A program made the position numbers and the translations under genes. From Thermoproteota archaeon (GTDB taxonomy: Archaea; Asgardarchaeota; Jordiarchaeia; Jordiarchaeales; Freyrarchaeaceae): a stretch of DNA of 23,415 nt. The DNA lies in the NCBI GenBank assembly GCA_029258835.1, contig JAPDJY010000004.1:1-23415 (forward strand), written 5' to 3'. The notes beneath the pieces are model-generated. The model ran no database searches, was not told the DNA's origin, and saw nothing but the letters and a program-made list of their open reading frames with translations. This document shows, piece after piece, positions 1,977 through 22,497 of the stretch (its first letter is position 1; each line of letters opens with the position of its first letter).

Positions 1977-2742
1977 ATGGGTGAAGAAGAGATTTTGAGT
2001 AAGTTAAGGGATGCTATCGTGAACCTTGACATTAAGGGGTTAGGGAGGCTTGCGAGGAGGCTGTTAGGCGGGTATACCTGTGTTTAAAGTTGTGAGTGAA
2101 GGGATGGCTAAGGGTATGGAAGTGGTTGGGGGGAATTACGAGAAAGGCGAGTATTTCCTAGCTGACTTGGTTGTGGCGGGAGAAGCCATGAAGGAGGGTA
2201 CGAAGATCCTCGAGCCTCACTTGAAGGCTGGCGAGGCGAAGGCATCAGGGAGGGTCGTGACCGGAACCGTTAAGGGGGACATGCATGACATTGGAAAGGG
2301 CGCCGTCGCAACCATGCTTAGCGGTGCAAGGTTTCAAATTATAGACTTTGGGCGTAGACGTCCCCCTGAAAAGTTCGTTGAAGCCGTTAAGAAGGAGACG
2401 CCGGACATAGTCGGCATGTCCGCCCTCCTCACTACCACCATGATCGAAGTGGAAAACGTGGTAAAGGTGCTTAAGGAAGCTGGAGTAAGAGGCAAGGTTA
2501 AGGTTATCGTAGGCGGAGCCCCTGTGTCGCACGAGTACGCCGAGAAGATCGGGGCGGACGCGTACGCAAGAGAAGCTGTTGAAGGAGTGTCGATCTGCAA
2601 GTCATGGGTCGCCGGGAAGGCAGAGGCACGAGCAAAAACGACAAGCAACGTAAACCAGCCAGAGCACCCTCAACATGGTATGGCTGGGAAGCGAAGCCGC
2701 CAGAAGTTAACAGGAAGAAACCTTAATTCCTCATATTTTTAA
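1977..2742 (+). pseudogene. Methyltransferase-system corrinoid (B12-binding) protein, MtaC/MtbC-like, frameshifted
   Basis: ATG at 1977 gives MGEEEILSKLRDAIVNLDIKG. Two missing Gs (~2036-2039, ~2066) break VREACEEAVRAGIP. It continues with YEKGEYFLADLVVAGEAMK, GTVKGDMHDIGK (DxHxxG), GMSALLTTTM and VGGAPV. A compensating +1/-1 pair at ~2347-2365 turns DLGVDVPP into DFGRRRPP. Confidence 0.85.
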
Positions 2743-2807: not shown

Positions 2808-3404
2808 CTAAAGGTTTTGAGGCTTCTCCTCCAGTCCGGCAGCTTTCAGGGTTAAGGCTAGGTACGCTATTTCCGCCGAGTGCTCCACCATGCACATGTA
2901 CTGGTAGGCTACATCCATGAACTTGGCGGCTGTGAATACCCCGTGATTCCTAACTATGACGGCGTGACTCCTCCGCAGCGCCTCAGAAACGTTTACTGCA
3001 AGCTCCTCTGAGCCGGGCTTCCCCGACACGACCGGGACCGACTTCAACACGTAGTATCCTTCAGCGTCGGGTGGAACAAGCTCGTCTAGGAAAAGGGACA
3101 GTGCAACGGAGTATGGGGGGTGAGCGTGGAGGACTGCAAGGTTCGGCGTCCTCCGGTATACTTCACGGTGGACTATGGTTTCAGTCGACGCTAAAGCCTC
3201 GAACCCCGAGGGCTTATCCACGTAAACCTGTATAACGTCGTCCACTCTTAACTCCTCCAGTGAGGAGGCATGCCTCGTAATCCACATTATGTCTCCGCTC
3301 CTTATGCTCGCATTCCCCCCATGAGCCGTAACATACCCTCTCCTAGCCATACGCGAACAGTAATCCTTCAACTCCTCGTAAACGTAGGATGGAACCCTAG
3401 GCAT
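2808..3404 (-). CDS. Class II aldolase/adducin family protein (FucA/MtnB-like)
   Basis: GGNASIR, ASTETIVH, LHAHPPY and RNHGV provide the Zn ligands and catalytic Glu. Start is ATG 3404 (or GTG 3410), overlapping the AOR stop. Confidence 0.9.
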   Translation of the reverse strand: MPRVPSYVYEELKDYCSRMARRGYVTAHGGNASIRSGDIMWITRHASSLEELRVDDVIQVYVDKPSGFEALASTETIVHREVYRRTPNLAVLHAHPPYSVALSLFLDELVPPDAEGYYVLKSVPVVSGKPGSEELAVNVSEALRRSHAVIVRNHGVFTAAKFMDVAYQYMCMVEHSAEIAYLALTLKAAGLEEKPQNL

Positions 3405-5190
3405 CCTCACCCACCTCTAACCCTAAACGTTTAAGGGTGCCATGGGTTGGAACCCCATCCTCACCCCAACCTCTGACCCGGTAGTACTCCCTCAGCATCT
3501 CATCCAGAGGAATCCTTTTCCCAGCGCAGACCCCCTCATCCATGGGCGACAGCAGCCTCCCGGGAAGCCTATCCTCCTCCGCGCTTATCCCCGCCCTTAA
3601 GTTGTAGACTCTTTCAAGGTTCCACACTCTCTCACCAATCGCTATGACGGTCTCCTGAGTGAAGTCCTCCCCTGTCACGGCTTTAAGGAAAAGGGAGTAC
3701 ATTTCGTCGTCAAACTCGAAAGCTGTAAACTTGCAGAGAACCATGCTGTCCACCGCAGCCGAAAGGTTCTGGAGGTACGCCACTATGCTAGCCTTCCCCG
3801 CAGCAGAGAACCTGTCCATCAAGTGTGGTATCCCGAAGATCTCCACGGCTATCATGTAAGGGTTCAAGTGGCATCCACCCCTGTTAGCGGTGGCGTAGCC
3901 AAGCCCTTGGCCGAAGGCACCCCTCGGATCATACATGGCCAGCTCCAAACCCTTAACATGCATCGCGTAGGCCTCTCCTCCAACCTCCTCAGCGAACCTT
4001 TTAGCGCCCTCAGCAAGCCTATCCCCGATCCCTCTCCTGTAGGCGGTGGCGACGATGAGCTCACGCACCCTCTCAACGTCACCCCACCCGATCTTCTCCC
4101 CAATCACCCCCCTCTCCGAAAGCTCCATGGCACACGCCAAGGTCACCCCGGTGGATATGGCGTCCAAGCCAAGGTCGTTGCAAAGGTAGTTCAGCGCCGC
4201 CACGTCTTCAACGCTGCCAATCGTCAGCATGGAGCCGAGCGCACCCAACGTCTCATACTCCGGCCCCTCACCGTCCACGTCGCCAACCCTGGTAATCCTC
4301 TTACAGCCGACAGGGCAGTTAAAGCAGCTACTCCTCCTCACAAGAATCCTCTCCCTTAAAGCCTCCCCTGATATGTCCTCGGCACCGCTAAACGAGCCAT
4401 GCTGAAAGTTCCTAGTTGGAAGGATCCCATGCTCGTTAACTATGTTGACGAGGGCGGAGGTCCCATACTCCCTCAAAGCCTTGCTGAGGACAGGGTTCCA
4501 CACAAACCTCGCCTTGACCTTCTCCATAAGCTCCCCGAGCCCCCTCTCGTCAGCAACCTCCACCCTTCTAGTCCCCCTCACAGCTACCGCCTTCAGCAGC
4601 TTGGAGCCCATAACGGCGCCCAGCCCTCCTCTACCAGCAGCATTGGAAACGTCGTTGAGTATGCAAGCATACCTGACAAGGTTCTCCCCTGCGGGCCCTA
4701 TACACGCAACGCTGAACCCTCTAAGCTCCTTCCCCAGCTCACGCCTAGCTTCCCTTGTCCCCTTACCCCAAAGCCAGGAGGCATCCCTGAGCTCGACGTC
4801 GCCATCATCCACGACCAGAAGCACGGGCTTCTCAGCTCTACCCTTAACCACCAAGGCGTCGAAGCCAGCCTTCTTAAGGGCGGCGCCGAAGAACCCGCCG
4901 GAGCTAGAGTAGAAGCAACCCCCAGTCAAAGGGGACTTGCCAGCCACCACGTACCGCCCGGAAGTATAAACTCTCGTAGCGGTCAAAGGGCCAACGGCGA
5001 AAACGAGGATGCTGTCAGGGGAGAACGGGTTGAGTGATGGAGGAACATGATCGTAGACCAGCCTGACGCCTAGCCCCCTACCACCCATGTAGTCGTAGAG
5101 GAGGCCTCTCTCAACGTCAACATGCTTAGCCTCCATGGACGAAAGATCTACGATTAAAAATTCACCACGCCAGCCAAACAAGGCTTCCAC
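3397..5190 (-). CDS. aor: Tungsten-containing aldehyde:ferredoxin oxidoreductase
   Basis: 597 aa with KSPLTG, IGPAGENLVRYA, GRGGLGAVMGSK, LPTRNF, CFNCPVGC, GPEYET, GLDAIS, YDPRG and RGGCH. Confidence 0.95.
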   Translation of the reverse strand: MEALFGWRGEFLIVDLSSMEAKHVDVERGLLYDYMGGRGLGVRLVYDHVPPSLNPFSPDSILVFAVGPLTATRVYTSGRYVVAGKSPLTGGCFYSSSGGFFGAALKKAGFDALVVKGRAEKPVLLVVDDGDVELRDASWLWGKGTREARRELGKELRGFSVACIGPAGENLVRYACILNDVSNAAGRGGLGAVMGSKLLKAVAVRGTRRVEVADERGLGELMEKVKARFVWNPVLSKALREYGTSALVNIVNEHGILPTRNFQHGSFSGAEDISGEALRERILVRRSSCFNCPVGCKRITRVGDVDGEGPEYETLGALGSMLTIGSVEDVAALNYLCNDLGLDAISTGVTLACAMELSERGVIGEKIGWGDVERVRELIVATAYRRGIGDRLAEGAKRFAEEVGGEAYAMHVKGLELAMYDPRGAFGQGLGYATANRGGCHLNPYMIAVEIFGIPHLMDRFSAAGKASIVAYLQNLSAAVDSMVLCKFTAFEFDDEMYSLFLKAVTGEDFTQETVIAIGERVWNLERVYNLRAGISAEEDRLPGRLLSPMDEGVCAGKRIPLDEMLREYYRVRGWGEDGVPTHGTLKRLGLEVGEDA

Positions 5191-5530
5191 CCAAAAGTAA
5201 AGACTGCAACCTTCCTTAAAACATCTACTGAAAAGCTGGTTTTAAAGGGTCTAAGCGGCTTGAATGGCGAGGAAATCCAAGCTGTTGAGAAGGCCGGTTA
5301 AGGTGGGTGCTGAATGCTGGAAGCTCCAATAACACACGTCTTGGCTTTTCCATGCATGACTAGTTCGAAGCCGGGCTTGAAGGTGACAGCCCTGAGGATG
5401 GGCCGATAGTGGGAACATGAAGAACATGAAGAAGAGGAAGCTTCACCCACCAAACCCACTAAAAACTTTATCTTGTAGGTATGTTTTTTAAGATGTTAAA
5501 TTAAAGAGTTTTTAGAATGGAGGTGGATGA

Positions 5531-6166
5531 TTGCCTTTGCTGGAGGACGTTGCCCGCCTTCTCGACGAGGCGGGCTTAGAATATGTTAAGGAGGAGGGCT
5601 TCATCCTGATGGAGTGGGAGACGCGGCGGTTCTCAGACTTAAAGGTTGGAATCGCCACTTCACCTGATGAGGACTGGCTTTTCATAATAGCTTGGCTTCT
5701 CAACCTGTCAGAGGTATCGAGGGAGGAGTGGCCCTCCCTCTTCTACAGCCTTTTAAGGGAAAACTACGCGCAGAACGGTGTAAAGTACGGTATTGATGAC
5801 GAGGATGTAGTGTTCGCCAGCATAGAAACAGCCGACACCGACCTCACGGTGGAGGAGATTCGAAACTACATCTTCTCCCTCCTGGAGGCGTGCGACAGTT
5901 TCGCAGAGAGGTACCTCGGCGCCACGGGTGAAGGTGTAGGGGTGATGGAGGCGTTAACCGAGGCTGAAGCCATAAGCATTGCTGAAAACTTCGTGAAAAG
6001 AAAGGCTAGGACAGAAAAAATCGAAATTACGAGGCGTGAGTGTGACCCATCAGGGTGGCGCATCGAAGGATATTATAGCCTCCCCTACGCAGGAGTCAAG
6101 TTCTTAGTGGAAATCGACCATAAAACGGGGAAGGTAACGGACTACCATACGTGGCCCCTCCCCTAG
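5531..6166 (+). CDS. YbjN/CesT-like chaperone-fold protein with a C-terminal PepSY-like domain
   Basis: Acidic N-terminal ~130 aa with LLRENY..NGVKYGIDDEDVVF (YbjN pattern). C-terminus LTEAEAISIAENFV...W.IEG...VEIDHKTGKV. GGAGGTG RBS before the TTG start. Confidence 0.65.
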   Translation: MPLLEDVARLLDEAGLEYVKEEGFILMEWETRRFSDLKVGIATSPDEDWLFIIAWLLNLSEVSREEWPSLFYSLLRENYAQNGVKYGIDDEDVVFASIETADTDLTVEEIRNYIFSLLEACDSFAERYLGATGEGVGVMEALTEAEAISIAENFVKRKARTEKIEITRRECDPSGWRIEGYYSLPYAGVKFLVEIDHKTGKVTDYHTWPLP

Positions 6167-6249
6167 AGCAGGAATTAACACCATAAAACCGCCTCTACAA
6201 CACATTTCGCCCCTCACAGGCCTCCCATTCGACATGTCTAAACAAAGAC

Positions 6250-6595
6250 GAGTTCACGATCAAACATCAGACGGCTGCCTCCAAGCCTCCAAGGCCCATA
6301 TAGGTAGCTGTGACAAGGAGAACACTTCGAATGAAAGAGCATGCCTCCTAGAAGGGTGTTCAGACATTGTGTTGGCAGGTAATGGCCGAATCCCCTCCGC
6401 ACCTTTCACCACGTCGAATTCAAGGTCGACTTCCACCGCCTTAGAGGTGTTGAATCCGGGTACGCGAGAAGCCCCTAAATGCCTTAAATGCCCTAAATGC
6501 CCTCTCAGCGCTTTGCCGGGAGGAAGAGGGTAAGGAGCGCTTGGCCTCGCGGAACCCTTTAATCCTCCGCCTGCGCCAACCATCTAACTCTTCAC
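6250..6595 (-). pseudogene. Degraded HEPN-domain protein
   Basis: Across shifting frames: VRWLAQAED*, RQSAERAF(RAF)(KAF) (cf. QQAAEKALKA), VDLEF, HYLPTQCLNTLLGG (cf. HYIPTRYPNALPGG). Confidence 0.65.
6474..6500. repeat. 3 x 9-bp tandem repeat (cctaaatgc/cttaaatgc/cctaaatgc)
   Basis: Read directly from the sequence. It lies inside the HEPN remnant at the EKALKA motif. Confidence 0.9.
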
Positions 6596-6599
6596 CCCT

Positions 6600-6850
6600 C
6601 CAAGCCCTCCCTATTATCCTCCCACCTTGTTCCTCAGGAAGACGCTTACTAGAAGACTCCGCTCTACCATTCAGGTGTGAAGATGAATGCCCCCACCTCC
6701 CCCCTCAAGCAACCTCTTCACTCCTTAGCCATTTTCGTTAAGGCACCACCACTAGGACGTCAAGCCACTCCACACCCGGCTCCGCCTGAAGGCGTAGAAG
6801 TTGAAAACCACCTCCAGTTCTCCTTATCCCTGCAGGTTCCTCCTCCAAAC
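6600..6850 (-). pseudogene. Degraded minimal nucleotidyltransferase (MNT antitoxin)
   Basis: EVVFNFYAFRRSRVWSG/LDVLVVVP (cf. LFGSYARG....SDLDVLVV) and EVGAFIFTPE, directly upstream of the HEPN remnant. Confidence 0.55.
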
Positions 6851-7277
6851 CCGTCCCTTCACCCCTTCATCGCTGAGGCTCCACTAAACGCAACGTTCAA
6901 CCCTTAAAGGGGGAACAAAGGGGGACCACAAACCTGCAATTCCTTTTCCATGCATCCAACCATGCTCTGCTTACAGCCCCATAAAGCAACGTGTAAACTA
7001 CGCACCCTAAAGCAGCTAATATTAGGGTTCTTGTTGGCTGTCGCTTCTAACTTCGCCTAGGAGGTTCCTAGAACCTTTCGGCGTGTGATCTTTCATGTAG
7101 TTTCTCCTTTAATGGGGTTCTTTACGTCCTAGGCCTCCTGCATTCCACTAGTTATTGCCCTCTCACCTAGCGGCCATTACCCACCCACTAACTATTACTA
7201 TTTCAAGGGGGGGAGAGGGCTTACATGTCTCTGAGCAGCCTCTCGCACCCGCCTTTACCATCCGTTGCTTGGCGGCC

Positions 7278-8420
7278 TTAGAGTTCACGTTCTATCGTGG
7301 CTCTCTCTATGATTCTCAGTCCTCTCCTCTTTAGTTCTTGGAAGAATTCTTGCGGCTCAATACATCCCTCCGGAGGGAAGACGCCCTTCTCTTTAATCGC
7401 TCCGCTAGCGATCATCTGGGCTCCTATGGATAGCGCTATCCCCGCCTCCCACTCGTTGCCTATCCTGTCGTAGATGTAGGTTGCCTGGTTCCCATCCTTT
7501 CTGCCTTTCACTATCACCCGTGACGCTTTAACTAGCTCTCCTCCACCGGTTAGGCTTCCACTCAGTCTGCTAATCACCGACTTGAGGAGGGCGGCGGTGA
7601 AGTCTCTTGGCACCACCGGAACCCCCCTAACATTGATGGGTTCGGCGTCTCCCAGCCCGTAGGAGAGAAGCCTTATGAACTCCTGTCCGGCCCACACCGG
7701 AACGATGCCACCCTTACAGTACACGTTCTTAACCCGAATGTATCTTGGTATGGTTAATGGCTCGGGGTGCCCGGAGTGGAACACCTCAACTCTGCCTACA
7801 GGGTCGGGGAACTCGACGACCTCCTTATCCGAGCCGGCGGGCACGTAAACCCACTGCCCCTGCTGGTATGAGGGTACGTTTCCGGAGAATGCGCCGATGG
7901 CGTGTAGGGTGGCTGCCTCCCCCGTTCGGGAGATGGCTGGGTGAACCCAGATAAACTTGATTTCCTCCACTTCATCCAGCTTCTGCGCCCCGTACTTGGC
8001 ACACAGGTTCCCTACCCCAGGGTTGTTGCCCATGCCAACTACTACGGTTATGCCAGCCTGCTCGGCCTCGTCATGCAGGTTAAGCTCGTCGACTGTTGGC
8101 TGAGGGTCGTCGCAGATATCAACAAAGTTCACTTCGGCCTCTATTGCCGCCCTGAGAACCTTAACCCCATACTCGCTGAACGGGCCAACAGTGCTGGCTA
8201 CAACGTCAGCATCCTGCATCACCCTCAGCAGCGAGGCATGATCGTTCGCGTCCACGAACTCGGCTGAAACCTGCGTACCTTGACCCCCATAAGTTTCAGC
8301 TAGAAGCTCCGCTTTGCCCTTATCATAGTCGGCGACGACGACGCTTTCAACACCGCTGCTAACCAGATCCTTCAAGGCAAGTTGCCCCATTCCCCCTGCA
8401 CCAAGCAGGACAATCTTCAT
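7278..8420 (-). CDS. Saccharopine dehydrogenase / lysine 6-dehydrogenase family oxidoreductase
   Basis: MKIVLLGAGGMG Rossmann motif, STVGPF, NFVDICDD, GMGNNPG, HPEPLT and GVFPPE. ATG 8420 is preferred to the ORF-track start. Confidence 0.9.
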   Translation of the reverse strand: MKIVLLGAGGMGQLALKDLVSSGVESVVVADYDKGKAELLAETYGGQGTQVSAEFVDANDHASLLRVMQDADVVASTVGPFSEYGVKVLRAAIEAEVNFVDICDDPQPTVDELNLHDEAEQAGITVVVGMGNNPGVGNLCAKYGAQKLDEVEEIKFIWVHPAISRTGEAATLHAIGAFSGNVPSYQQGQWVYVPAGSDKEVVEFPDPVGRVEVFHSGHPEPLTIPRYIRVKNVYCKGGIVPVWAGQEFIRLLSYGLGDAEPINVRGVPVVPRDFTAALLKSVISRLSGSLTGGGELVKASRVIVKGRKDGNQATYIYDRIGNEWEAGIALSIGAQMIASGAIKEKGVFPPEGCIEPQEFFQELKRRGLRIIERATIEREL

Positions 8421-8613
8421 CTCAACACGCTCCCAGCAGCTATCCTCTACAAACCACCTTTCCTCTTTACGCAGCAACATGCAGCGATCTGCCAAATATA
8501 CCTTACTCGTCTTTTCTTACTCTATTAAGTTCCTTCTTGCTATTGAGAACCATGGAAACTAGGCGGCAGGCTAAGCAGGGGGGAAGAAGGGTTGCCTTTT
8601 CCCCACGTTTCCG

Positions 8614-9927
8614 CTACCTCATTCGTTTAAGGATGATGAACGTTGCAGCTGCAGCCGCTGCAGCGACGCCGCATGCGGCGACGTACAGTGTTACCGCCTG
8701 CTGATGGGAAGAGTAGTACTGTACATAGTATAGTGTGGCTAAGGCTGAGAGGGCTGGCTGACCGAGCATTGGACCTTGATCGCAGGTTGGACCATAGGGT
8801 CCGGTTCTGGTGTATGTTTTTGCTTTTTCGGTGAAGGTCAGCCCCTCCTGGTGTCCTTCAAACGCTTCCACCTTGATCTTCTCGCTTCCTATCACTTGGA
8901 CGATGAGGGTGTACTGCTGCCCCTTCAGCTCGCTTGGCTCCTGTCCAACCAGATAGTATGTTACTACCCCGTCTTCCGCCGAGACCTCTCTGAAGTCTGG
9001 CCCTGTTGCGTTGAAGACCCCGACGGGGAGCGGAGACAGCAGGTCTCCGCCAACCGATACGACCATTTGCGAGGCATTGTAGACGTAGTAGACGAATGCC
9101 AGTTGTGTGCTCCAGTTCCAGATGCACGGCTCAGCCCCCTCAAGGAACCAGTTCCCGCTAAGCCTACCCAGCATGTCATAGTCTATTTTTCCGCCTTTCG
9201 GCTCACCAACCCTGTTAACTTTCGAGTAGGCCTTCTCCTTCAGGCTTCCCTCTAGGTAGTCCAGTGGACAGACCGCGTGCGCCGCATCAGGGTAATAAGT
9301 TTCAGGGTGTATGAAGCTGAGCGTAACCTCGTAGTCTATTGCCCCCCAGTCTAGGCATACAGACCCTCCCGGCTGCTTGGACGCTACACCGACTATGTCT
9401 CCAGCCTTAACTGGTATGTTGACTTCAACGCCTCCCCAACCAACTTCGATCTCCCCTGTCTGGCTTATGATCCAATCAGCCACTCCGGAAAGGTGGTAGA
9501 AGTAGCTTTTGAGCGTGTCCGTGTGTTTTATGTAGAGCGAGTAGTCCTGGTATGAGGCACCCTCCTCAGTGCAGTTTTCAATCTCTATTATGACGCCGTC
9601 GGCGGGCGCCCTCACATTGTAAACCCCGTCATTTAGCACGAAGTATATGTGATCACTTGGAAAGGTGTGGCCAGGCGGGCCAAGGTTTCCTAAGGGTATT
9701 ATTTCGTAGTATGCATCGTCCTCTAGGGGGATGACCGTGAATGTAAACTCTGTTTCCTTAACGAACCCTAGAGAAACGGATCCTAGAGAGCTAGCTGAGT
9801 AAGTAGGCACCGTTAAAGCTGACGGCCAGCCTACGCCGCCCAGCCACACTGCTTGGCTTAGGATAGCTCCAGCTATTATGCCACTAAGCAGAAACGCGAC
9901 GGGAAAACAAGCTCTCCGCATGAACAC
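8614..9927 (-). CDS. Secreted, C-terminally anchored protein with an M23/LytM-like (duplicated hybrid) fold domain
   Basis: N-terminal RR plus hydrophobic signal/TM. Internal GHTFPSDHIYF, VRAPADGVI, IKH....SYFYHL and VKAGDIVG. C-terminal hydrophobic Ala-rich helix followed by KRMR. Confidence 0.7.
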   Translation of the reverse strand: MFMRRACFPVAFLLSGIIAGAILSQAVWLGGVGWPSALTVPTYSASSLGSVSLGFVKETEFTFTVIPLEDDAYYEIIPLGNLGPPGHTFPSDHIYFVLNDGVYNVRAPADGVIIEIENCTEEGASYQDYSLYIKHTDTLKSYFYHLSGVADWIISQTGEIEVGWGGVEVNIPVKAGDIVGVASKQPGGSVCLDWGAIDYEVTLSFIHPETYYPDAAHAVCPLDYLEGSLKEKAYSKVNRVGEPKGGKIDYDMLGRLSGNWFLEGAEPCIWNWSTQLAFVYYVYNASQMVVSVGGDLLSPLPVGVFNATGPDFREVSAEDGVVTYYLVGQEPSELKGQQYTLIVQVIGSEKIKVEAFEGHQEGLTFTEKAKTYTRTGPYGPTCDQGPMLGQPALSALATLYYVQYYSSHQQAVTLYVAACGVAAAAAAATFIILKRMR

Positions 9928-10502
9928 TATCTCCTCATAAGGGGTTGGCGGGCTGGAAGGCTGCCTTCATCCTGCCATCAGCCGTATGGAAAGCGCCATC
10001 AAATCCTAAAAAAGTTTATGGTAAAACTTACCAGTCGTTTCAACTAGCCTTTCACGGGGCAGTGCTGGAACGTTAGCACCCTCAATTAGTTCAAATTCCT
10101 TGTAGCTACCGTTCACGTGGACGCTTTACCGCCCCCAGCTTCCAACCATGACTAGCGGTCTGACACCTCATTACACCTGCAGGCTAGGCGCCGCCACCCG
10201 CAAACCTTCATCCTCTAAAGGGAGGTGTCAAAGCGAATGTACCATTGCACTAATGCAACACGTTACGAATGTGCCAGCATCTCTGACTTTGGAGGATGGT
10301 AAGGCGTAGGGTTGGTGTTGGTGGGGTGCGCTCACGTTTGAAGGCTAATCATGCACCGTTATTGAGGGTTATGCTTAAAAACTGTTGCTTTTGCGTGCTC
10401 TCCAGTCGGAGTTGAAAGCCGCAGGTGGGTCTGAGGGTGATGGGCGCCCACGCTGCTGACGGTTTGGCCGGTAGGCCGTCCGCCGCCTCTGCCGTCACTA
10501 TA

Positions 10503-10537
10503 AGGTAAACCTTAAATGCTTACCATTCGTAGTAAAT
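10503..10537 (+). promoter_or_regulatory. Probable vapBC promoter/operator
   Basis: BRE/TATA-like GGTAAA-CCTTAAATG about 35 nt before the ATG. It overlaps inverted GGTAA...TTACC and TTAC...GTAA half-sites of the kind antitoxins use for autorepression. Confidence 0.4.
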
Positions 10538-10550
10538 ATTGGTGGTCTTA

Positions 10551-10781
10551 ATGGGTAAGTATGTGACGGTGTCTGTGAAGGTGCCCTTGGAGGTGAAGAA
10601 GAGGCTTGAGGAGCTTGGCATTAAGCCTTCAGAGGTGCTGAGGAGGGCCATAGAGGAAGAATTGGAGAGAAGGGAGCTGGAGGAGATCGAGAAGGAGCTG
10701 GGTAAGCTATCCTCCGTTTTGAGCAAGTTCTCTAGGGATTTCATTGTGGAGAGCGTTAGGGAGGACAGGGAGTCGAGATGA
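10551..10781 (+). CDS. vapB: VapB-type antitoxin (ribbon-helix-helix)
   Basis: YVTVSVKVP.EVKKRLEELGIKPSEVLRRAIEEE and C-terminal VESVREDRESR. ATGA overlap with the PIN gene. Confidence 0.85.
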   Translation: MGKYVTVSVKVPLEVKKRLEELGIKPSEVLRRAIEEELERRELEEIEKELGKLSSVLSKFSRDFIVESVREDRESR

Positions 10782-11170
10782 GCTTCCTCTTTGACGCCTC
10801 CTCAATATTCGAAGCGCTAGTGGAGAGGAAGGTGAGGGCTCTACACGGGAACTACACCATAGACTTAGCCGTGTACGAGGTGGGAAACATTCTGTGGAAG
10901 AGGAGGCGCCTGCTAAAGGACGTGGACGACGAGGAAATCGCTCAACTAATCGGCTTGATTAAGAGAGTGTTAAGGTTGCTTAAAACGGTTAAAATAGACT
11001 GCCATGAGAGAGAAGTGGTTGACATCGCTGTTAGGTTTGAGGTCACATTTTACGATGCATCCTACGTCTTCGCAGCCAAAAACAATAACCTCACACTCGT
11101 TACAGAAGACGAGAAGCTTAGAAGGAAGGTAAAGGGCTACGTGGACACGCTGAGCCTAAGAGAGATTTGA
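10778..11170 (+). CDS. vapC: VapC PIN-domain ribonuclease toxin
   Basis: FDASS, YEVGNILWK, TFYDASY and LVTED, so the PIN acidic tetrad is intact. Confidence 0.92.
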   Translation: MSFLFDASSIFEALVERKVRALHGNYTIDLAVYEVGNILWKRRRLLKDVDDEEIAQLIGLIKRVLRLLKTVKIDCHEREVVDIAVRFEVTFYDASYVFAAKNNNLTLVTEDEKLRRKVKGYVDTLSLREI

Positions 11171-11361
11171 GGCAGGATGAGCGCTGTCAGCGCCCCCGTC
11201 CTCCCTCAACCGTATGCGATGAGATTGTTCAGCGTTGAAGGATTGAGACTGTGAGGCAGAGGTTCGATGTGGGCTGGTGGAGGCGGCGACGTGAAGGCGC
11301 CCTTCAAGCGCTGGATGCTTCTCTCTAATTGGAGGGGTGTGGGCTCCCGTTAGCAGTAACC

Positions 11362-12168
11362 CTACGGGGTCCCACCCGCCAAGCACTTGATTTCCTCGAC
11401 TATCTTTGGGAGTATATTCCCTGTCATGCCTTGGATAAAGTAGTCGGATACCTCTATTGTGAGTGGTGTTGGTTCGGCGTTAACCTCTATGACTACTGCA
11501 GGGTTTGGCTTTTGCTTTGCGAACCTTGGAAGGTAGGCTGCGGGGTAGACGACCGCTGAGGTCCCAGCAACGATCATGGCGTCACACTTTCTAACCTCTT
11601 CGAGGCTTTTCTTGTAGGCGTCATGCGGGATCGGCTCTCCAAAGTAGACGACATCAGACTTCAAGGGGTGGCCGCAGTCCCTGCACCGGGGAACGTCCCC
11701 TCTCCCCACAATCCCCTTAACGTCAAACTCGCTTCTTCCATACCGTTTTCCACAGTTTACGCAGCGGAGTTTGAAGGCGTTTCCATGGAATTCTATGACG
11801 TTCCTGCTTCCCGCCTTCTGGTGTAGGTTGTCAATGTTCTGGGTGATCACACACTTCAAAATCCCCATTTTCTCCAGCTCCGCCAGCGCGTAGTGCGAGG
11901 GGTTCGGCTGAACGCGCTCAAGGTCTCCAAGGGTGGAGGGCCTACTCACGGCCTCCTCCCAGTAAGCCTTCGGGTCCCTGAGGAACCTGCCGTAGACTTC
12001 GTACGCCCTCCTCTCAGCCTCAGGGTTCTTCGTCCATATCCCCGATGGACCCCTAAAATCCGGTATGCCAGACTCCGTTGAAACCCCTGCACCGGTGAAA
12101 GCCACCGCATACCTAGACCTAAGGAGAACCCTTGCAACCTCCCTGATAACTTCACCCTCAACACCCAA
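11362..12168 (-). CDS. cobB: Sir2-family NAD-dependent protein deacylase
   Basis: TGAGVSTESGIPDFRG, ITQNIDNLH, EFHG, two CxxC motifs and GTSAVVYPAA. Confidence 0.93.
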   Translation of the reverse strand: MGVEGEVIREVARVLLRSRYAVAFTGAGVSTESGIPDFRGPSGIWTKNPEAERRAYEVYGRFLRDPKAYWEEAVSRPSTLGDLERVQPNPSHYALAELEKMGILKCVITQNIDNLHQKAGSRNVIEFHGNAFKLRCVNCGKRYGRSEFDVKGIVGRGDVPRCRDCGHPLKSDVVYFGEPIPHDAYKKSLEEVRKCDAMIVAGTSAVVYPAAYLPRFAKQKPNPAVVIEVNAEPTPLTIEVSDYFIQGMTGNILPKIVEEIKCLAGGTP

Positions 12169-13390: not shown

Positions 13391-13564
13391 GCCTAAAATG
13401 AGAGTCAAAGCTGCTTCATCTTAAAGATTAAGGTTTTCGAGAATGTACGCTCGCCTCCTCCTCGGCAATCTCTCCTCCCTTTCTATCGTCATTAACGCTG
13501 TTTGGCAAAGCTTATAAGTTAGTTGCATTTTCCACCTATTCGTGGATCTGAAGGAGGGTGTGCC

Positions 13565-14374
13565 TTGTCAGAGTATGAGACCCTGATTTTGAAGAAGGAG
13601 CCGCCCTTGGCGTGGATAATCCTGAACAGGCCGAAGGCTAATGCCATAAACCAGAAGCTTATAGACGAGCTCGACAAGGCGTTAGATGAATTGTGGTTTG
13701 ACAAGGATGCTCGCGTGGTTATAATCACCGGGTCTGGCGAAAGGTTCTTCTCAGCTGGAGCCGACCTCAAGGAGCCGCCGACGATCACGCTACCCCAGAC
13801 ACTAGGGGTTCCGCAGGTTGCCGCGATGGTCGAGACCGCAATGTACATGGCGAAGGTGACGCAGAAGATCGAGAGGTTCCCAAAGATAGTTATAGCTGCT
13901 ATTAACGGTTACGCTCTGGGTGGGGGATGCGAGCTCGCCGCCGCATGCGATTTCAGGATAGCAGTTGAGGATGCTCAGATAGGTCAGCCCGAACTCCAGA
14001 GAGGGATAATCCCGGGTTGGGGTGGAACCCAGAGGCTGACACGCCTCGTAGGGCTAGCGAAGGCCAAGGAGCTCTGCCTTCTAGCTGAGCCGATAAGCGC
14101 GGAGGAAGCCTACAGGATAGGCTTGGTTAACAAGGTGGTTCCACGGGATAGGTTTGAGGAGGAGGTTAAGGCGTTCGCCATGAAGCTGGCGCAGGGACCA
14201 CCCATAGCTCAGCGCGTCACGAAGTACGCCCTCAACTTTGGAGCGGAAGCTCCACTCAACACAGGACTGATACTCGAGGCAGCCCTTGCCTCTATAGCAA
14301 GCTCGAGCAAGGATGCAATGGAAGGGGTCATGGCGTTCTTGGAGAAGCGTGCACCACAGTTTAAAGGAGAATAA
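13565..14374 (+). CDS. Enoyl-CoA hydratase/isomerase (crotonase)
   Basis: LNRPKANA, FSAGADL, NGYALGGGCEL and GQPE..RGIIPGWGGTQRL, with both catalytic Glu present. TTG 13565 follows a GGAGG RBS. Confidence 0.95.
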   Translation: MSEYETLILKKEPPLAWIILNRPKANAINQKLIDELDKALDELWFDKDARVVIITGSGERFFSAGADLKEPPTITLPQTLGVPQVAAMVETAMYMAKVTQKIERFPKIVIAAINGYALGGGCELAAACDFRIAVEDAQIGQPELQRGIIPGWGGTQRLTRLVGLAKAKELCLLAEPISAEEAYRIGLVNKVVPRDRFEEEVKAFAMKLAQGPPIAQRVTKYALNFGAEAPLNTGLILEAALASIASSSKDAMEGVMAFLEKRAPQFKGE

Positions 14375-14556: not shown

Positions 14557-15126
14557 CTAATCTATCAGTCTCAGCTCGTGCCTGCAGCATTCGTGCCCTG
14601 CAGCCCTGCACCTGGTCTCCCAGGACTCAGCGTTGAAGCCTCTAAGCTGGCAGACCTCAGTAAATATTCCATCGATGAGTATGCACAACCTTACGTTCTC
14701 CCTAATCTCTTTGGGTGCAAGTACTCCCTTGCAGAGGGGGCAACCGTAGTCCTCGTACACTATCTTCCCCTCCTCGGGGATCACGGTAACTTTGTCGAAC
14801 TTTTTACCAGTATAAAAGTAGTATGCGAAATCGTAGGTTTTCGCGAACTCATAAAACTCGACAGCATGCTTCCCTACATGCTCAGCATACTTTGTAAGCA
14901 TTCTCGCCCCAGCCTTTCTCCCCAAGTTCCAAAGGGCAACGGTGGCCTTCTCGGCGTCCCCCTCTCTCTCCATAAGGTACTCGAAAGTGGCGAGCAACAT
15001 CGCAATAGCCGAGTCTAAATCAATCTTCTTAGCGACAACGTGCCAGGCGATTCGACCTTTTAACCCCATAAAATCATCCTCCGCAAACTCGTCCTCCATA
15101 AAGCATAAAATAAATGATTTCACCAT
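14557..15126 (-). CDS. V4R-domain protein (V4R / Bet3-TRAPP-like fold), paralog 2
   Basis: LWNLGRKAGAR, CPLC, C...DGIF and ETRCRAAGHECCRHEL (V4R E..C.A.G...C.F pattern). Start is 15126 or 15099. Confidence 0.8.
   Translation of the reverse strand: MVKSFILCFMEDEFAEDDFMGLKGRIAWHVVAKKIDLDSAIAMLLATFEYLMEREGDAEKATVALWNLGRKAGARMLTKYAEHVGKHAVEFYEFAKTYDFAYYFYTGKKFDKVTVIPEEGKIVYEDYGCPLCKGVLAPKEIRENVRLCILIDGIFTEVCQLRGFNAESWETRCRAAGHECCRHELRLID
14573..14641. repeat. 69-bp exact direct repeat, copy 1 (copy 2 at 15181-15249)
   Basis: agctcgtgcc...gttgaagcct is identical in both V4R genes. Confidence 0.95.
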
Positions 15127-15164: not shown

Positions 15165-15677
15165 CTACCTGGTTATTTTTAGCTCGTGCCTGCAGCATTC
15201 GTGCCCTGCAGCCCTGCACCTGGTCTCCCAGGACTCAGCGTTGAAGCCTATGAGACGACATATTTCGGTGAAGAGCCCGTCCACTTGGATGCAGGCCCTT
15301 CCCTCCTCCCTGAACTCTTCAGGGAAGATGAAGCCCTTACACAGCGGGCAATTGTAGTCCTCAAAGATTATAAGCCCCTCTTCCGGCGACACACGTATCT
15401 TGTCAAACTTCTTACTGGAAAGAGACTCATACATCGTATCAAAAATCTTAGCGAGGCCATGCAAGTCTCCACCGTGCTTCCTGATCTTATCAGAGTACCT
15501 GACGAGGAACCTCGCCCCCGCCCTCCTCCCAACATTCCAGCCTTCCCTTATAGCCGCCGAGACGTCTCCCTCCTTCTCTAAAAGGTAGTCTATCATCGAT
15601 TGAGTTATGGAAAGATATGCCTCAAGATTGATCTTCCCACTTACAGGGTAATAGTAACTCCACCCCTTCACCTCCAA
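15165..15677 (-). CDS. V4R-domain protein, paralog 1
   Basis: GWNVGRRAGAR, CPLC, C...DGLF and ETRCRAAGHECCRHEL. TTG 15677 after a G-rich RBS is preferred because the ORF extension to 15812 crosses AT-rich promoter-like DNA. Confidence 0.8.
   Translation of the reverse strand: MEVKGWSYYYPVSGKINLEAYLSITQSMIDYLLEKEGDVSAAIREGWNVGRRAGARFLVRYSDKIRKHGGDLHGLAKIFDTMYESLSSKKFDKIRVSPEEGLIIFEDYNCPLCKGFIFPEEFREEGRACIQVDGLFTEICRLIGFNAESWETRCRAAGHECCRHELKITR
15181..15249. repeat. 69-bp exact direct repeat, copy 2
   Basis: Identical to 14573-14641. Confidence 0.95.
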
Positions 15678-16045
15678 ACGAACCCCCCAGAGAAAAACCA
15701 TTATAACCCATCTTTCTCCTAAATATAAATAAATTTTATTGTTTACAATGAGATTTCCCACCACATTGAAAGCCAAATTTAGAAGACATTCCAAGTTTGA
15801 GCATAAAGCCACGTCTATACATTAAAGCGCTAGGATTAACGGAGAAAAGACATTCCCGGCACATGCAACTTAACGCGAAAATCAACAATGAGAAGAGGCG
15901 GAACTCTCTGGAGTCTGGAAAAAGGCATTTCTAAGGGATTTTACTTAGTCAAAGATCAAGATAGTTAAATGTTGGAGTGAGTCGCCGATGACGCGTAAGT
16001 GAGATGGTTGCGTCGTTCGCTTTCCTGGCCATTTAACGCTGCGTG

Positions 16046-17248: not shown

Positions 17249-18916
17249 TTAAAACTCTGTTTTGGGAACGCATTCCCCATAAACCTCCCTTAGGACGCTG
17301 CACACTTCTCCGACCGTCGCGTACGCTTTAACAGCTTCTATGATCGCTGGCATAAGGTTCTCCTCTCCCTCACCCGCCTTCCTCCTCAGCCTTTCCAGCG
17401 CATCCCTCACTCTCCTGTTGTCCCTCTCTCTCCGCAGCTTCTCTAGGTTTTTCACCGCTTTCTCCTCTACTGAAGGGTCAACCCTGTGTACTGGAACCTT
17501 AACCTCCCCCTCCTCCCTGAACATGTTGACTCCAACTATAACTACTTCCCCCATTTCGACGTCCTTCTGGAAGCTGTACGCTTTCCTAGATATCTCCCTT
17601 TGAATGTACCCTTTTTCTATAGCTGCAACCATGCCCCCCATCTCGTCGATCTTCTCAATGTATTTTTCCGCCTCCTCCTCTATCCTGTCCGTTAAAGCCT
17701 CAACGTAGTATGATCCTCCGAGGGGGTCTATGGTGTCAGGAACCCCTGTTTCGTAAGCTATTATCTGCTGGGTTCTGAGGGCAACCTTAACCGCTTCCTC
17801 GCTTGGCAACGCTAGGGCCTCATCGTAAGAGTTCGTATGGATGGACTGAGCCCCCCCGAGAACTGCTGCCAAAGCTTGAATCGCAACCCTAACTATGTTG
17901 TTGAGAGGCTGCTGGGCTGTCAGGGTTGAGCCCGCCGTTTGAACGTGAAACCTGAGCATCATAGCCCTCTCAGTCTTCGCACCAAACCTCTCCCTCATTA
18001 TCTTAGCCCAAAGCCTCCTTGCAGCCCTGAACTTAGCCACCTCCTCGAAAAAGTTGTTGTGGACGCTGAAGAAAAATGATAGCCTGCCGGCGAACCTGTC
18101 CAAGTCCAGCCCCCTCTCCAGCACTGCTTCAACATAGGCTATCCCGTTGGCTAGGGTGAAGGCGACTTCCTGTACGGCGTCAGCCCCAGCCTCCCTTATG
18201 TGATAGCCTGAGATCGAGATCGGGTTCCAAAGCGGCATGTTCTCGGCGCAGTACTCTATGACGTCCACGGTCAGCTTCATGGATGGCTTAGGAGGAAAAA
18301 TGTACATTCCACGGGCAATGTACTCCTTCAATATGTCGTTCTGAACCGTCCCCCGCAGCTCGGAGGGCTTCACGCCTCTCCTCTCCGCGAGGGCAACGTA
18401 CATTGCCAATATAACCGGCGTGGGAGCGTTGATCGTCATCGAGGTACTCACCTTGTCAAGGGGTATGCCATCGAAGAGAACCTCCATATCCCTCAGCGAG
18501 TCTACGACCACCCCAACCCTTCCAACCTCACCCGCCGCTAGGGGGTGGTCAGAGTCGTACCCCAACTGGGTTGGAAGGTCGAACGCCACGCTAAGCCCCG
18601 TCTGACCCTGGGAGAGAAGGTACTTAAACCTCCTGTTCGTCTCCTCAGCCGTCCCAAAGCCCGCATACTGGCGCATGGTCCAAAGGCGGCCCCTATACAT
18701 CGTCGTGTAGACCCCCCGGGTGAAGGGGTACTCTCCCGGGAACCCGAGCTTCTCCAAGTAGTCTTCCTCGTGGAAGTCGAGGGGGGTGTAAAGCCTCTTC
18801 ACCTCCACCCCTGATGAGGTCTCAAACCTTCCTTTCCTCTCCGGATGCTTGGCTACGGCGTCGCGAACTTTCAACTCCCACTCCTTCACCTTCCCCTCAA
18901 TTCCCCTCCATCTCAT
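17249..18916 (-). CDS. mcmA: Methylmalonyl-CoA mutase, substrate-binding (large) subunit
   Basis: [42 protein letters not shown] and HTNSYDEAL. Tyr in RQY and Arg in IARG indicate methylmalonyl-CoA rather than isobutyryl-CoA specificity. There is no B12 domain (split archaeal type). Confidence 0.95.
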
Positions 18917-19281
18917 GCAGGATCCTCCCTTGGAACGAATACAACCCCGTAAACCGGCTTGCCATCATCATCCGCCACTACGTCTACTACAGGCTTAACC
19001 CTCATGCCAACCCTTAAGTTTTCCCCCCGAAGCTGACCGAACCCCCTCACACCGCCGCCGAACTCGACTATGCCGAAGGCGCATTCCCCCCTTCCCCTAA
19101 GCCTTCCCGGGAGGGCACGTAGGATGGTGAACGAAATCAGCCTTCCGCTCTCAACGTCCGGATGATACTCGTCAAAGTCTTTGCCCTTACACCGGATGCA
19201 CCTTGCCCTTGGAAGCTGAACCATCCCACACCTCCTACACTTAAAGTAGGTTAACTCCTTTAAAACGTCCACCCCAATCAC
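18913..19281 (-). CDS. DUF35 Zn-ribbon/OB-fold acyl-CoA-binding scaffold protein
   Basis: CRRCG...[20 protein letters not shown] and LRVGMRVKP. It overlaps both neighbours by 4 nt. Confidence 0.9.
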
Positions 19282-20435
19282 CTCCTTTGAAGGACGTGGA
19301 CTACTATGCTGTTGCCGAACCCTCCAAAATTGACGGCGAGCCCCGTCTCAGCCCCGTCAACCTGCCTCCTCCCAGCCTCCCCTCTAAGCTGCCAAGTTAA
19401 CTCGACTATTTGAGCTACGCCCGTGGCGCCGAGAGGGTGACCCCTAGCCTTCAACCCCCCGCTAGGGTTTACCGGTATTCTGCCTCCAATCCACGTTTCA
19501 CCTTCCTCAACGGCTTTAGCACCCTTCCCCTTCTCGAAGAGCCCCGCATCCTCCGACTCGACTATCTCTAGGATGGTGAAGGCATCGTGGAGCTCCGCCA
19601 CGTCCACATCCCTCGGGGTGACCCCGGCCATGGCGTAAGCCTTCCCAGCTGCAACCCTTAAAGCGTTCAGCACCGTTGGGTCCTCTCTCTCAGCCACAGA
19701 CTGCACGTCCGTAGCCTGCCCAACCCCCTTAACTAGGACAGGCGTGTCGGTGAACTCTTTAGCCGCATTAGCCGGGCACAGGACGACGGCAGCTGCCCCG
19801 TCGCTGATAGGGCATGTGTCATAGAGGCGTAAGGGATCCGCTATCACCGGCGAACGGAGCACCTCTTCGAGCGTCACCTCCTTCTGAAAGTGGGCGTATG
19901 GGTTTAAGGCCCCGTTCTTGTGGTTTTTAACGGCGACGAGCGATATGGACTCACGCTTAACCCCATACCTTTCCATGTACATCCGCATTAGGAGCCCTCC
20001 AAAGGACGGCAGGGTTGCACCGTACTTGTACTCCCTTTCAGGGTGCGTCAGCGTCGCTATTACGTCAGCAACCCTCCCGGTCGGGGTTGAAGTCATCTTT
20101 TCCCCTCCAGCCACGAGCACCATGTCGTAGAGCCCCGAGGCGACCGCTAGGAACCCCGCCTTGACCGCGGATCCGCCGCTCGCAGGCCCGTTTTCAACCC
20201 TGTCCGCAGCCGATGGTATAAGCCCAACCCTGTCTGCTAAGGCTGCGGCGACGCCGGTGACCATGTTGAACTCTCCGGAGCACATGTTCCCGACGTAGAC
20301 AGCGTCAAAATCCCTTTCACAGGCGCCTGCGTCCGAGATGGCCTTGAGGGATGCTTCAACAAGGAGGTCGACCAGCGACCTTTCACTCCTTCCGAAGCGT
20401 GTCATCCCACAGCCAACCACGGCTACTTCGCGCAT
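19278..20435 (-). CDS. SCP2/archaeal-type thiolase-fold protein lacking the canonical nucleophilic Cys
   Basis: [39 protein letters not shown] and [17 protein letters not shown]. It has VENGPASG in place of VENACASG. Start is 20435 or 20450. Confidence 0.9.
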
Positions 20436-20507
20436 CACACCACCATTCATAGTAGAAAAGGAGCACCGCTTAAAAAAGATGTGTACGTGGCACGGAGGAA
20501 GGCTCGT

Positions 20508-21683
20508 TTACGGCCTCTCTATCAGGACTGCTGTCCCCTGCCCTCCACCGCAGCACATCGTAGCCACACCGTACCTGCCATCCATGAGTTCAAGTATCCT
20601 TGCTAGGGTTCCGGTCAGCCTTGCTCCCGTCATCCCGAGAGGGTGGCCTATGGCTATTGCTCCTCCCTTAACGTTCACCACGTCAGGGTTTAATCCGAGC
20701 TCCCTTATAGCGTAGAGGGTTACCACCGCGAATGCCTCGTTTACCTCCCAGAAGTCTATGTCGCTCACCTTCAACCCTGTCTTCTCCAGCAGTCTCCTTG
20801 AAGCCGGGACGGGTCCCTTACCCATGACGCTTGGGTCCACAGCAGCCCACGCGGCATACCTCAGGTACGCTAATGGCTCTATCCCGTACTCCTTCGCCTT
20901 CTTCTCGCTCATTAGGATCACCGCTCCAGCCCCGGCGTTTAACGGGGAGGAGTTACCAGCGGTTATGACGCCGTCGGGCTTGAATGCTGGGGGTAGGTTA
21001 GCTATCTTCTCCAGCGTGGTGTCCGGCCTGACGCTTTGATCCCTATCTATCACGGTCTTCGTCCCGTCGGCGAGCGTGACCTCAATCGGGACTAACTCGT
21101 CTTTGAAGTATCCTTCATCATAGGCTTTGGCGGCCAGCATGTGGCTTCTAAGCGACCACTCGTCCATTTCCTGCTTGCTTATCCCCGACTCCTCAGCCAG
21201 CTTCTCGGCGGTTAACCCCATGTTGAACGCTACCGTCCAGTCAAACCTTTTCTCCTGCTGCACATATTCTGGGTTAGGCGAGACGTTTGCGCCCATGGGG
21301 ACATGGGTCATGTGCTCGTATCCTCCCGCAACCACGACCTCCGACACGCCCGTCACGATCTCCATTCCACCTATTCCTATGGCTGTCATGGCCGAGCCAC
21401 ACTGCTTTTCGACGCCTAGGGCTGGGGTCTCAATCTCCAACCCTGCTTGGAGGCTTATGAGCCTGCCGCCATAGTTGAACTGCTCACCTGACTGGTTGGC
21501 GCACCCCAGAATGCAGTGGTCTATGTCCTTCTTGTCTATCCCTGAACGCTCGACGAGCTCCCTTATGACTATGGCCATTAACGTGTCCGCACGGACGCTG
21601 TTGAAAACGTCTCTTTCAGGCTGCCTAGGTCGGGACCTAGATATAGGAGACCTGAGGTATCCAGCAATAACTACGTCCCACAT
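20508..21683 (-). CDS. fadA: Acetyl-CoA C-acyltransferase (classical 3-ketoacyl-CoA thiolase)
   Basis: EKQCGSA (nucleophile), TAGNSSP, VNEAF, GHPLG.TG and [11 protein letters not shown] 21683 follows a GGAGG RBS. Confidence 0.92.
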
Positions 21684-21874
21684 GCTTATCCCTCCGAACA
21701 TACCCGGCAAACCTACACTTCAACCCGTAATAACTCTTTCGAAGGAAGCCGCTTGCACTTAAGCCGTTAATGGTGAAGGCGGCTGGGCGCTGACCCACCG
21801 GAAGCTGCCGGATCCCTTACCAGAGGCAGCGAAAATTAGAAATTAAAATGTTCCATGGTGTTTAGCTGGTGACT

Positions 21875-22497
21875 ATGACCGAGATGTACGCTGTCTTGAA
21901 GGATAAGTCTGCTCTTGGAGCGGCGATTAGGAGAGTGGACGTTCCGGGGATTGGAAGCGGCAACGTGCTAGTTAAGGTTGAGAGGGCGGCGATATGCGGC
22001 GCAGACCTACACATCTTCAACTGGGACGTGGTGGCAAGCTTCATAGGAGGATCCCTCTCATATTTGGACATGAGTTTTCCGGCGTGGGGAGGGAGAGACC
22101 GCTACAAAGGCGGATATAGGCGACTCTGCTTCGGGGAACCCGCATAGCGGATGGGGGATGCTATCAGTGTAGAACGGGGAGGATGCACATATGCAGAAAC
22201 CTTAAAATTCTAGGTGTTGACGTGGACGGAGCCTTCGCCGAGTACGTTGCAGTGCCCGAGCTAAACGCGTGGAAGAATGATAAGAGCTTAAACCCGCGTA
22301 TAGCAGCCTTACAGGAGCCCTGGGGTGCGCGGTCCACGCCATATATCCAAGGGATCACGTAGCCTGTAGCGGGTAAAACCGTGCTGGTCACGGGATGCGG
22401 GCCGATAGGGCTGATGGGCATAGCCGTCCTGAAGTCCGCCGCCGAGAGGGTTTTCGCAGCCGAGGTTTCAGGGTATCGGTTGAAAGAGGATCGCTAG
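21875..22497 (+). pseudogene. tdh: L-threonine 3-dehydrogenase-like Zn alcohol dehydrogenase, multiple frameshifts, 3'-truncated
   Basis: AAICGADLHIFNWD / IFGHEFSG / [36 protein letters not shown]...QEPWG / VLVTGCGPIGLM in changing frames with internal stops. Confidence 0.85.

Follow-up and report, generated by a model that had tools for sequence, protein, structure and literature searches.

A conserved cysteine-less thiolase-fold protein paired with DUF35 and recurrently linked to methylmalonyl-CoA mutase in uncultured archaea

Thiolase complexes scaffolded by DUF35 proteins are already known from mevalonate synthesis, archaeal fatty-acid synthesis, steroid aldolases, benzylsuccinate degradation and Friedel-Crafts acylases. 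In the archaeal complex of thiolase, HMG-CoA synthase (HMGCS) and DUF35 protein (PDB 6ET9 and 6ESQ), the thiolase gene precedes the DUF35 gene, and the DUF35 protein bridges the thiolase to a second enzyme that acts on a coenzyme A (CoA) ester. In the steroid side-chain aldolases Ltp2 and Sal, the tyrosine of a YDHF or YDCY motif serves as the base, and Tyr344 (Ltp2) or Cys304 (Sal) serves as the acid (PMC12329534). Published work on archaeal thiolase/DUF35 pairs describes many pairs per Asgard genome, and term searches of it turned up nothing on loss of the cysteine or on inactive pairs. Here we describe an operon in a 23,415-nucleotide stretch of archaeal DNA (contig JAPDJY010000004.1 of assembly GCA_029258835.1; Asgardarchaeota, Jordiarchaeales), the full length of which we call the window. 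The operon resembles the HMGCS complex in having a thiolase-then-DUF35 order. However, its thiolase-fold protein, P0002, differs from the 6ESQ thiolase in carrying Pro in place of Cys85 and HDAF in place of HDCF, and the partner encoded beside it is methylmalonyl-CoA mutase (MCM) rather than HMGCS.

According to the list of open reading frames (ORFs), four consecutive co-oriented genes, encoding P0001 to P0004, lie on the minus strand of the window. Their coordinates bear out the arrangement described in an earlier note on this DNA, in that two 4-nt overlaps, with ATGA read directly from the sequence, join the last three (P0002/P0003 at 19278-19281 and P0003/P0004 at 18913-18916). P0002 (19278-20450) is an SCP2/archaeal-type thiolase-fold protein (PF00108 and PF22691; NF004720 at 485 bits against a cut-off of 420), the homologs of which start at Met6 (position 20435). 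P0003 (18913-19281) is a free-standing DUF35 protein of 122 amino acids (PF01796, 30 bits) that combines an OB fold with a Cys4 zinc ribbon (C15, C18, C28 and C31), and none of the four cysteines varies among 16 orthologs. P0004 (17249-18916) is the large, substrate-binding subunit of MCM (PF01642, 795 bits; TIGR00641, 849 bits) and has no B12 domain.

Loss of the nucleophile in P0002 and its relatives

The minus strand from 20201 to 20172 reads AGG GTT GAA AAC GGG CCT GCG AGC GGC GGA, in which GGG CCT (20184-20189) encodes Gly88-Pro89 where the nucleophilic Ala-Cys pair would stand. When P0002 is aligned with solved archaeal thiolases, Pro89 falls on the nucleophile, namely Cys85 of 6ESQ and the Cys of the EAACASG motif of 7YVY. 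The HDAF motif (residues 288-291; 19578-19589, minus strand) keeps an invariant His and Asp and has Ala in place of the acid/base Cys of HDCF, and the GHP motif (residues 337-339 of GHPLG 337-341; 19434-19442, minus strand) keeps the invariant oxyanion-hole His. The third position of HDxF is Ala in 100% of the P0002 family versus Cys in 71% of canonical members, although HDAF by itself is not decisive because a quarter of Cys-bearing thiolases have it too. The reading frame is intact. Codons and alignment thus confirm the description from which this work started, with Gly-Pro for Ala-Cys, HDAF and GHP retained, and an undamaged gene.

The AlphaFold model of P0002 (pLDDT 90.5, pTM 0.92) has a thiolase fold and superposes on 6ET9/6ESQ, its closest structure match, at TM 0.93 with 43% identity. 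Compared with 80 Cys-bearing relatives, the P0002 family has lost C89, C290 (the Cys of HDCF) and H373, and C212 is variable; E117, N183, D217, H288, D289, N328 and H338 are invariant. The residues that set the family apart are G88, P89, S94, K97, C225, E254, L294, S299, F305, W353, F375, F378 and N380. No obvious acid or base was evident among these positions when they were considered as the source of a new, family-specific catalytic residue.

With Pro89 for the nucleophilic Cys and Ala for the acid/base Cys, P0002 cannot be an ordinary thiolase, as had been surmised. Its residues establish it as a thiolase-fold protein that is unable to carry out thiolysis but keeps the His/His/Asn site predicted to polarise a thioester. 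Annotation pipelines (JGI names) label such proteins 'acetyl-CoA C-acetyltransferase', a function that is excluded because the nucleophile is missing.

The Cys-to-Pro change is shared by close orthologs and is therefore not a private mutation of this genome. ENGPASG is found in 113 of the 120 best database matches of P0002 (58-98% identity) and in 126 aligned homologs, and Pro occupies the nucleophile position in 100% of 120 family members. In a tree of 171 SCP2-type thiolases, P0002 falls within a 40-row clade with 100% support, throughout which Cys is replaced by Pro, Ser or Thr; every member has H-D-(A/M)-F and nearly all have GHP. Homologs with ENGPASG come from Jordarchaeia/Freyarchaeota, Helarchaeota, Hadarchaea, Methanoperedens, Bathyarchaeia and some metagenome-assembled genomes (MAGs) labelled Anaerolineae. 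The MAGs labelled Anaerolineae or Anaerolineales carry the Cys-less thiolase operon at seven loci, and one of these genomes also encodes an archaeal-type HMGCS; either the genes were transferred from archaea, or contigs of archaeal origin were binned wrongly.

P0002 is a paralog of the mevalonate thiolase. No HMGCS gene adjoins P0002, and the HMGCS of this genome lies on another contig (C4) together with a Cys-bearing thiolase and a separate DUF35 gene. This split between an HMGCS-linked thiolase and a Cys-less form recurs in four other genomes. The small Hadarchaeal and Methanoperedens genomes and one 'Anaerolineales' MAG have exactly two such thiolases each, one HMGCS-linked and one Cys-less, with their own DUF35 for each. 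When orthologs are compared across the same genome pairs, the Cys-less proteins are 61-66% identical versus 46-51% for the mevalonate-pathway thiolases, and the P0002-type protein is the slower-evolving of the two in most pairs, even though the mevalonate thiolase is essential. We therefore conclude that the P0002 family is under strong constraint and is not decaying.

Our genome as a whole yields 17 matches to the SCP2/archaeal thiolase type. Among them are tandem gene pairs of SCP2-type thiolases at three loci (contigs C53 and C6), and a further pair was seen in a Bathyarchaeota genome. One copy of each pair is Cys-less with a Gly-Gly/Y-D-x-F signature resembling that of Ltp2 and Sal; at two of the loci (L008 and the Bathyarchaeota locus L080) the other copy keeps the Cys and has degenerate His motifs. 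Such pairs may encode heteromeric thiolase-fold enzymes.

Linkage to DUF35 and to methylmalonyl-CoA mutase

Gene neighbourhoods were tallied over 34 non-redundant loci of the P0002 family. The pairing with DUF35 is near-universal, with the DUF35 gene immediately downstream of the Cys-less thiolase gene in 30 of the 34. MCM is the third gene in nine, which derive from Jordarchaeum, other Jordarchaeales, Helarchaeota, Promethearchaeia, Methanoperedens and an 'Anaerolineales' MAG. The order thiolase-like protein, DUF35, MCM was seen in at least four lineages; the Promethearchaeia locus is arranged as DUF35-MCM-thiolase, and the Methanoperedens locus also includes a B12-binding small subunit.

Two further observations tie the module to the mutase. 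Of 26 sampled Methanoperedens-family genomes, two were found to encode the Cys-less thiolase and the same two to encode MCM, with the genes adjacent in both. Moreover, a closed genome from a sister family in the same order (G043) encodes a 697-amino-acid DUF35::MCM protein, P0277, in which a charged linker separates a DUF35 domain 45% identical to P0003 from an MCM part 69% identical to P0004. The Cys-less thiolase of that Freyarchaeota genome, P0278, lies 5.4 kb from the fusion gene and has no DUF35 gene of its own. The DUF35::MCM fusion, which was recognised from the open-frame length of an MCM match, is represented by three protein clusters that are independent and stem from separate data sources; a search of longer proteins for a fused P0003 returned no fused form. 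Recurrent gene order, co-occurrence in two of 26 genomes and the fusion together indicate that linkage to the mutase is conserved, which the earlier note had left as a point on which its proposal could fail.

The MCM-type residues Y84, A111, R202 and Y238-H239 are present in P0004 and invariant in the linked orthologs, and correspond to the Tyr of RQYAGF, the Ala of SVAFD, the Arg207-equivalent and the Tyr-His pair. The best PDB match of P0004 is the 2-hydroxyisobutyryl-CoA mutase HcmA (4R3U), in which Ile, Asp and Gln occupy the first three of these positions. P0004 thus appears, from these residues, to have methylmalonyl/succinyl-type specificity, with which an ethylmalonyl-CoA mutase would also be compatible. 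A prediction of the complex of P0002 (residues 6-390), P0003 (6-118) and P0004 (40-541) scored 0.00 and weighs neither for nor against binding.

The genome has one B12-binding small subunit and one MeaB::adenosyltransferase, both encoded outside the operon on contig C17. The cluster concerned (C17:11500-18500; minus strand, 4511-11415 of locus L125) holds a second MCM large subunit that is 69% identical to P0004, the only B12 small subunit of the genome, the fusion of MeaB with an ATP:corrinoid adenosyltransferase, and a metallo-beta-lactamase-fold protein. It also encodes another Cys-less thiolase-fold protein, P0275, with GGMSS at the nucleophile site and YGPF for HDxF, together with its DUF35. 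We considered the proximity of P0275 to the second MCM as support for a general thiolase-mutase theme and set it aside, given that the adjacency is not kept in relatives.

The first gene of the operon, P0001 (20508-21710, minus strand), encodes a type-II (classical) thiolase (NF005033, 580.7 bits against a cut-off of 511, in Pfam/NCBIfam searches) with the full set of catalytic motifs CGSA, NEAF, GHP and CCGGG. Its true start is likely the ATG at 21683, because family matches start at residue 10. Linkage of P0001 to the module is confined to the closest relatives (two loci), and nothing in the data speaks specifically for the branched-chain or isoprenoid lipid catabolism that had been proposed for the operon.

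Possible functions of the module

We tentatively consider P0002, P0003 and P0004 to be one module, in which a non-thiolytic thiolase-fold protein bridged by DUF35 to MCM may decarboxylate methylmalonyl-CoA. The joint occurrence of the three in several archaeal lineages and the fusion of two of them suggest an enzyme complex not described before. By analogy with the thiolase/HMGCS/DUF35 complex, a P0002 dimer would be joined to P0004 through the zinc-ribbon/OB protein P0003, and this docking would let a CoA ester pass between the mutase site and the thiolase-like site. P0002 would take (R)-methylmalonyl-CoA from the mutase and decarboxylate it to propionyl-CoA, a reaction that would require an enolate-stabilising oxyanion hole and neither a nucleophile nor a general base. 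Among the reactions of methylmalonyl-CoA or succinyl-CoA that could proceed with an oxyanion hole only, decarboxylation to propionyl-CoA is possibly the best fit, though we would put this below an even chance. Physical coupling would be useful because the mutase equilibrium favours succinyl-CoA, and decarboxylation would pull the unfavourable conversion of succinyl-CoA to methylmalonyl-CoA without biotin. It would also account for the consumption of methylmalonyl-CoA in genomes that lack biotin enzymes. The B12-binding small subunit and the MeaB::adenosyltransferase would be supplied from contig C17. A more sweeping version, in which the Cys-less thiolase/DUF35 pair is a biotin-independent (methyl)malonyl-CoA decarboxylase channelled to MCM and provides a route from succinyl-CoA to propionyl-CoA in anaerobic archaea including Asgard lineages, strikes us as conceivable but doubtful. 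As a precedent for such chemistry, a Cys-less thiolase-like protein, TbSLP, is reported to decarboxylate malonyl-CoA weakly (quoted in PMC12329534), and its crystal structure with malonyl-CoA has been solved (PDB 5AB7).

The earlier note had envisaged propionyl-CoA draining through the mutase after carboxylation, a route that the genomes searched do not support. No carboxyltransferase (PF01039) was found in our genome, which is 94.7% complete, or in five other carrier genomes searched; of the two Methanoperedens-family genomes with both genes, the one that was searched yielded none. Our genome also yielded no methylmalonyl-CoA epimerase above its cut-off. In this genome, therefore, propionyl-CoA cannot reach the mutase by carboxylation.

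Several observations weigh against a decarboxylase, and we present them together. The decarboxylase role of the P0002 family, including the Sulfolobus tokodaii protein ST0096 (PDB 4YZO), is one that we infer, and the known Cys-less decarboxylating condensing enzymes have Gln, not Pro, at the nucleophile position. In 20 of the 34 loci the third gene encodes not MCM but a GNAT acyltransferase of approximately 205 amino acids; MCM and GNAT share the one gene position and never occur together, and the GNAT form is the one seen in most lineages. No MCM was found in two Hadarchaeal carriers of the Cys-less thiolase, and the core function of the family therefore cannot depend on mutase-derived methylmalonyl-CoA. 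The GNAT-linked form and these Hadarchaeal genomes show that the core role of the family is broader than serving a mutase.

The distribution of the carboxyltransferase is likewise imperfect. Among 151 Asgard genomes, MCM is present in 109 and PF01039 in 85, and in the three families with confirmed MCM-linked loci PF01039 is found in 0 of 4 (f1), 0 of 6 (f2) and 1 of 25 (f9) genomes, counts that are not phylogenetically independent. Family f21 has a GNAT-type operon plus PF01039, one genome (G030) has PF01039 together with a Cys-less relative (SGP motif, 51% identical) approximately 1.4 kb from MCM, and about 20 f9 genomes have MCM but neither the carboxyltransferase nor the Cys-less protein. 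Strict complementarity between the module and the carboxyltransferase was thus rejected, since it holds at the confirmed MCM-linked loci and fails for the GNAT-type f21 and for G030.

The GNAT-type loci often carry homologs of AllF, AllG and AllH, which are products of the oxamic transcarbamylase genes of E. coli (PMC11326118), and sometimes an aldehyde:ferredoxin oxidoreductase (AOR). Genes for a xanthine-dehydrogenase-like protein, an amidohydrolase and a nucleoside ABC transporter are sometimes found at these loci as well (L012, L016, L122, L124, L134, L135 and others).

That one pair serves two unrelated partners using acyl-CoA, MCM or GNAT, at the same gene position is also what would be expected of a non-catalytic scaffold or CoA-ester holder, in which a Cys-less thiolase/DUF35 heterotetramer would only oligomerise its partner or present acyl-CoA to it. 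The two catalytic cysteines and H373 have disappeared, and scaffolding by DUF35 is well documented (bioRxiv 10.1101/2024.07.05.601840; PMC12329534). However, all remaining active-site residues are invariant across phyla, and the slow evolution described above is unusual for a purely structural pseudoenzyme, though ligand binding alone could explain it. We rate such a scaffold as plausible, with the chances nevertheless well against it.

A His-based retro-aldolase of thiolase fold, which would split a 3-hydroxyacyl-CoA into an acyl-CoA that feeds the mutase and an aldehyde or ketone, seems unlikely. P0002 is Cys-less and partnered with DUF35 like Ltp2 and Sal (structure-match ranks 35 and 50), AOR with ferredoxin follows the operon in five Hadarchaea/Bathyarchaeia loci, and the window has two AOR genes. 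Against this, the catalytic Tyr of YDHF/YDCY is His in P0002 and the second Tyr/Cys position is His/Ala, so that the invariant HDAF and the thiolase-type His/His pair do not sustain the Ltp2/Sal-type chemistry that had been suggested. Ltp2 is distant (E 2.5e-33) in comparison with archaeal thiolases (1e-94 to 1e-96), and no MaoC hydratase partner is found among the window ORFs scanned. With no carboxyltransferase found, any propionyl-CoA that is released has no path to MCM, and succinyl- or methylmalonyl-CoA as the direct product would call for an unknown substrate.

It is highly improbable that P0002 is an ordinary thiolase with a relocated Cys. The family does conserve C213 (99%), and C57 is present in P0002 as well, but C213 is not a compensating gain because canonical thiolases have Cys or Ser there too. 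C57, the residue of the NMCSG motif that had been proposed to enter the active site, is Cys in just 11% of members, the acid/base Cys is missing as well, and the genome already has a canonical HMGCS-linked thiolase. Least probable of all is a decaying paralog beside the mutase by chance. Catalytic residues are lost and the genome is rich in thiolases of this type, but the frame is intact, conservation is high, the same synteny recurs in distant lineages, the genes are gained and lost together, and DUF35 is found fused to MCM.

The remainder of the window holds several features that we record for completeness. Consecutive plus-strand ORFs at 2-607 and 679-1413 each match AOR domains and probably represent a single AOR gene interrupted by a frameshift, a stop or a sequencing error; an intact AOR gene lies at 3397-5190 (minus strand). 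A methyltransferase-type corrinoid protein (MtbC/MtgC-like, below cut-off) adjoins a class II aldolase (2080-2742, plus strand, and 2808-3410, minus strand); as a candidate for the mutase small subunit, the corrinoid protein was rejected at 33% identity over 94 amino acids. The window crotonase (13523-14374) was considered as a methylmalonyl-CoA decarboxylase of the YgfG type and likewise dismissed, its best NCBIfam matches being ordinary short-chain enoyl-CoA hydratases. Adjacent paralogs at 14557-15126 and 15165-15812 (minus strand; 52% identity over 166 amino acids, with a weak V4R match at most) are encoded on the strand of the mutase gene, downstream of it. Divergent from the operon, a 92-amino-acid ORF (21869-22147, plus strand) with a weak alcohol-dehydrogenase GroES-like match may be a gene fragment.

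Comparison with known systems

Full-text literature searches on Cys-less archaeal thiolases and on DUF35 with MCM found no paper describing either, and searches on 4YZO/ST0096 and on a thiolase-like protein with malonyl-CoA decarboxylase found no functional study. Relative to the known DUF35-scaffolded complexes, the new elements would be that the docked partner is a B12 mutase and that the thiolase-fold subunit is a conserved Cys-less His/His form, from a family widespread in uncultured archaea with a solved but unexplained structure. Present reconstructions deduce propionate metabolism from biotin enzymes; if the proposed turnover of methylmalonyl-CoA is true, those for Asgard archaea, Helarchaeota and Methanoperedens need revision.

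The solved structure belongs to ST0096 (a 'thiolase-like protein'), which matches P0002 at E 1.2e-94 and would gain a function if a decarboxylase role is correct. Like P0002, ST0096 is missing both the nucleophile (NTSGSGG) and the Cys that acts as acid/base (HDMA), and it keeps both His residues. It has Ser where P0002 has Pro at the nucleophile position, and its signature fits the 'TS' branch of the Cys-less clade, in a tree whose rows did not include 4YZO itself.

The steroid side-chain aldolases Ltp2-ChsH2(DUF35) and Sal-Shy(DUF35) (6OK1 and 9MYR) share with P0002 the thiolase fold, the absence of a nucleophilic Cys and the DUF35 partner. However, they are only 24-27% identical to P0002, which has His288, Ala290 at the position of the Sal Cys, and His338 at what is, to judge from a spacing of 50 residues, probably the position of Ltp2 Tyr344. 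In those systems DUF35 forms one domain of a MaoC hydratase, whereas here it is free-standing or fused to MCM. The benzoylsuccinyl-CoA thiolase BbsAB (7PXP) resembles P0002/P0003 as a pair of DUF35 and SCP2-type thiolase, and its product, succinyl-CoA, is a substrate of the mutase, but BbsB retains the catalytic Cys and P0002 scores 183 bits against a BbsB cut-off of 750.

Loss of the nucleophile with retention of the carbonyl-polarising residues is also seen in KSQ/CLF of polyketide synthases and in TbSLP, which act on malonyl thioesters. In contrast to P0002, KSQ/CLF have Gln and use esters of acyl carrier protein, and TbSLP has YDCF and trace activity only. The E. coli succinate-to-propionate operon sbm-ygfDGH genetically couples MCM to a biotin-independent methylmalonyl-CoA decarboxylase, YgfG, which has a crotonase fold and no DUF35. 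The thiolase/HMGCS/DUF35 complex, which contains the closest structure match of P0002, may share with the P0002 module the principle that coupling pulls an unfavourable step forward.

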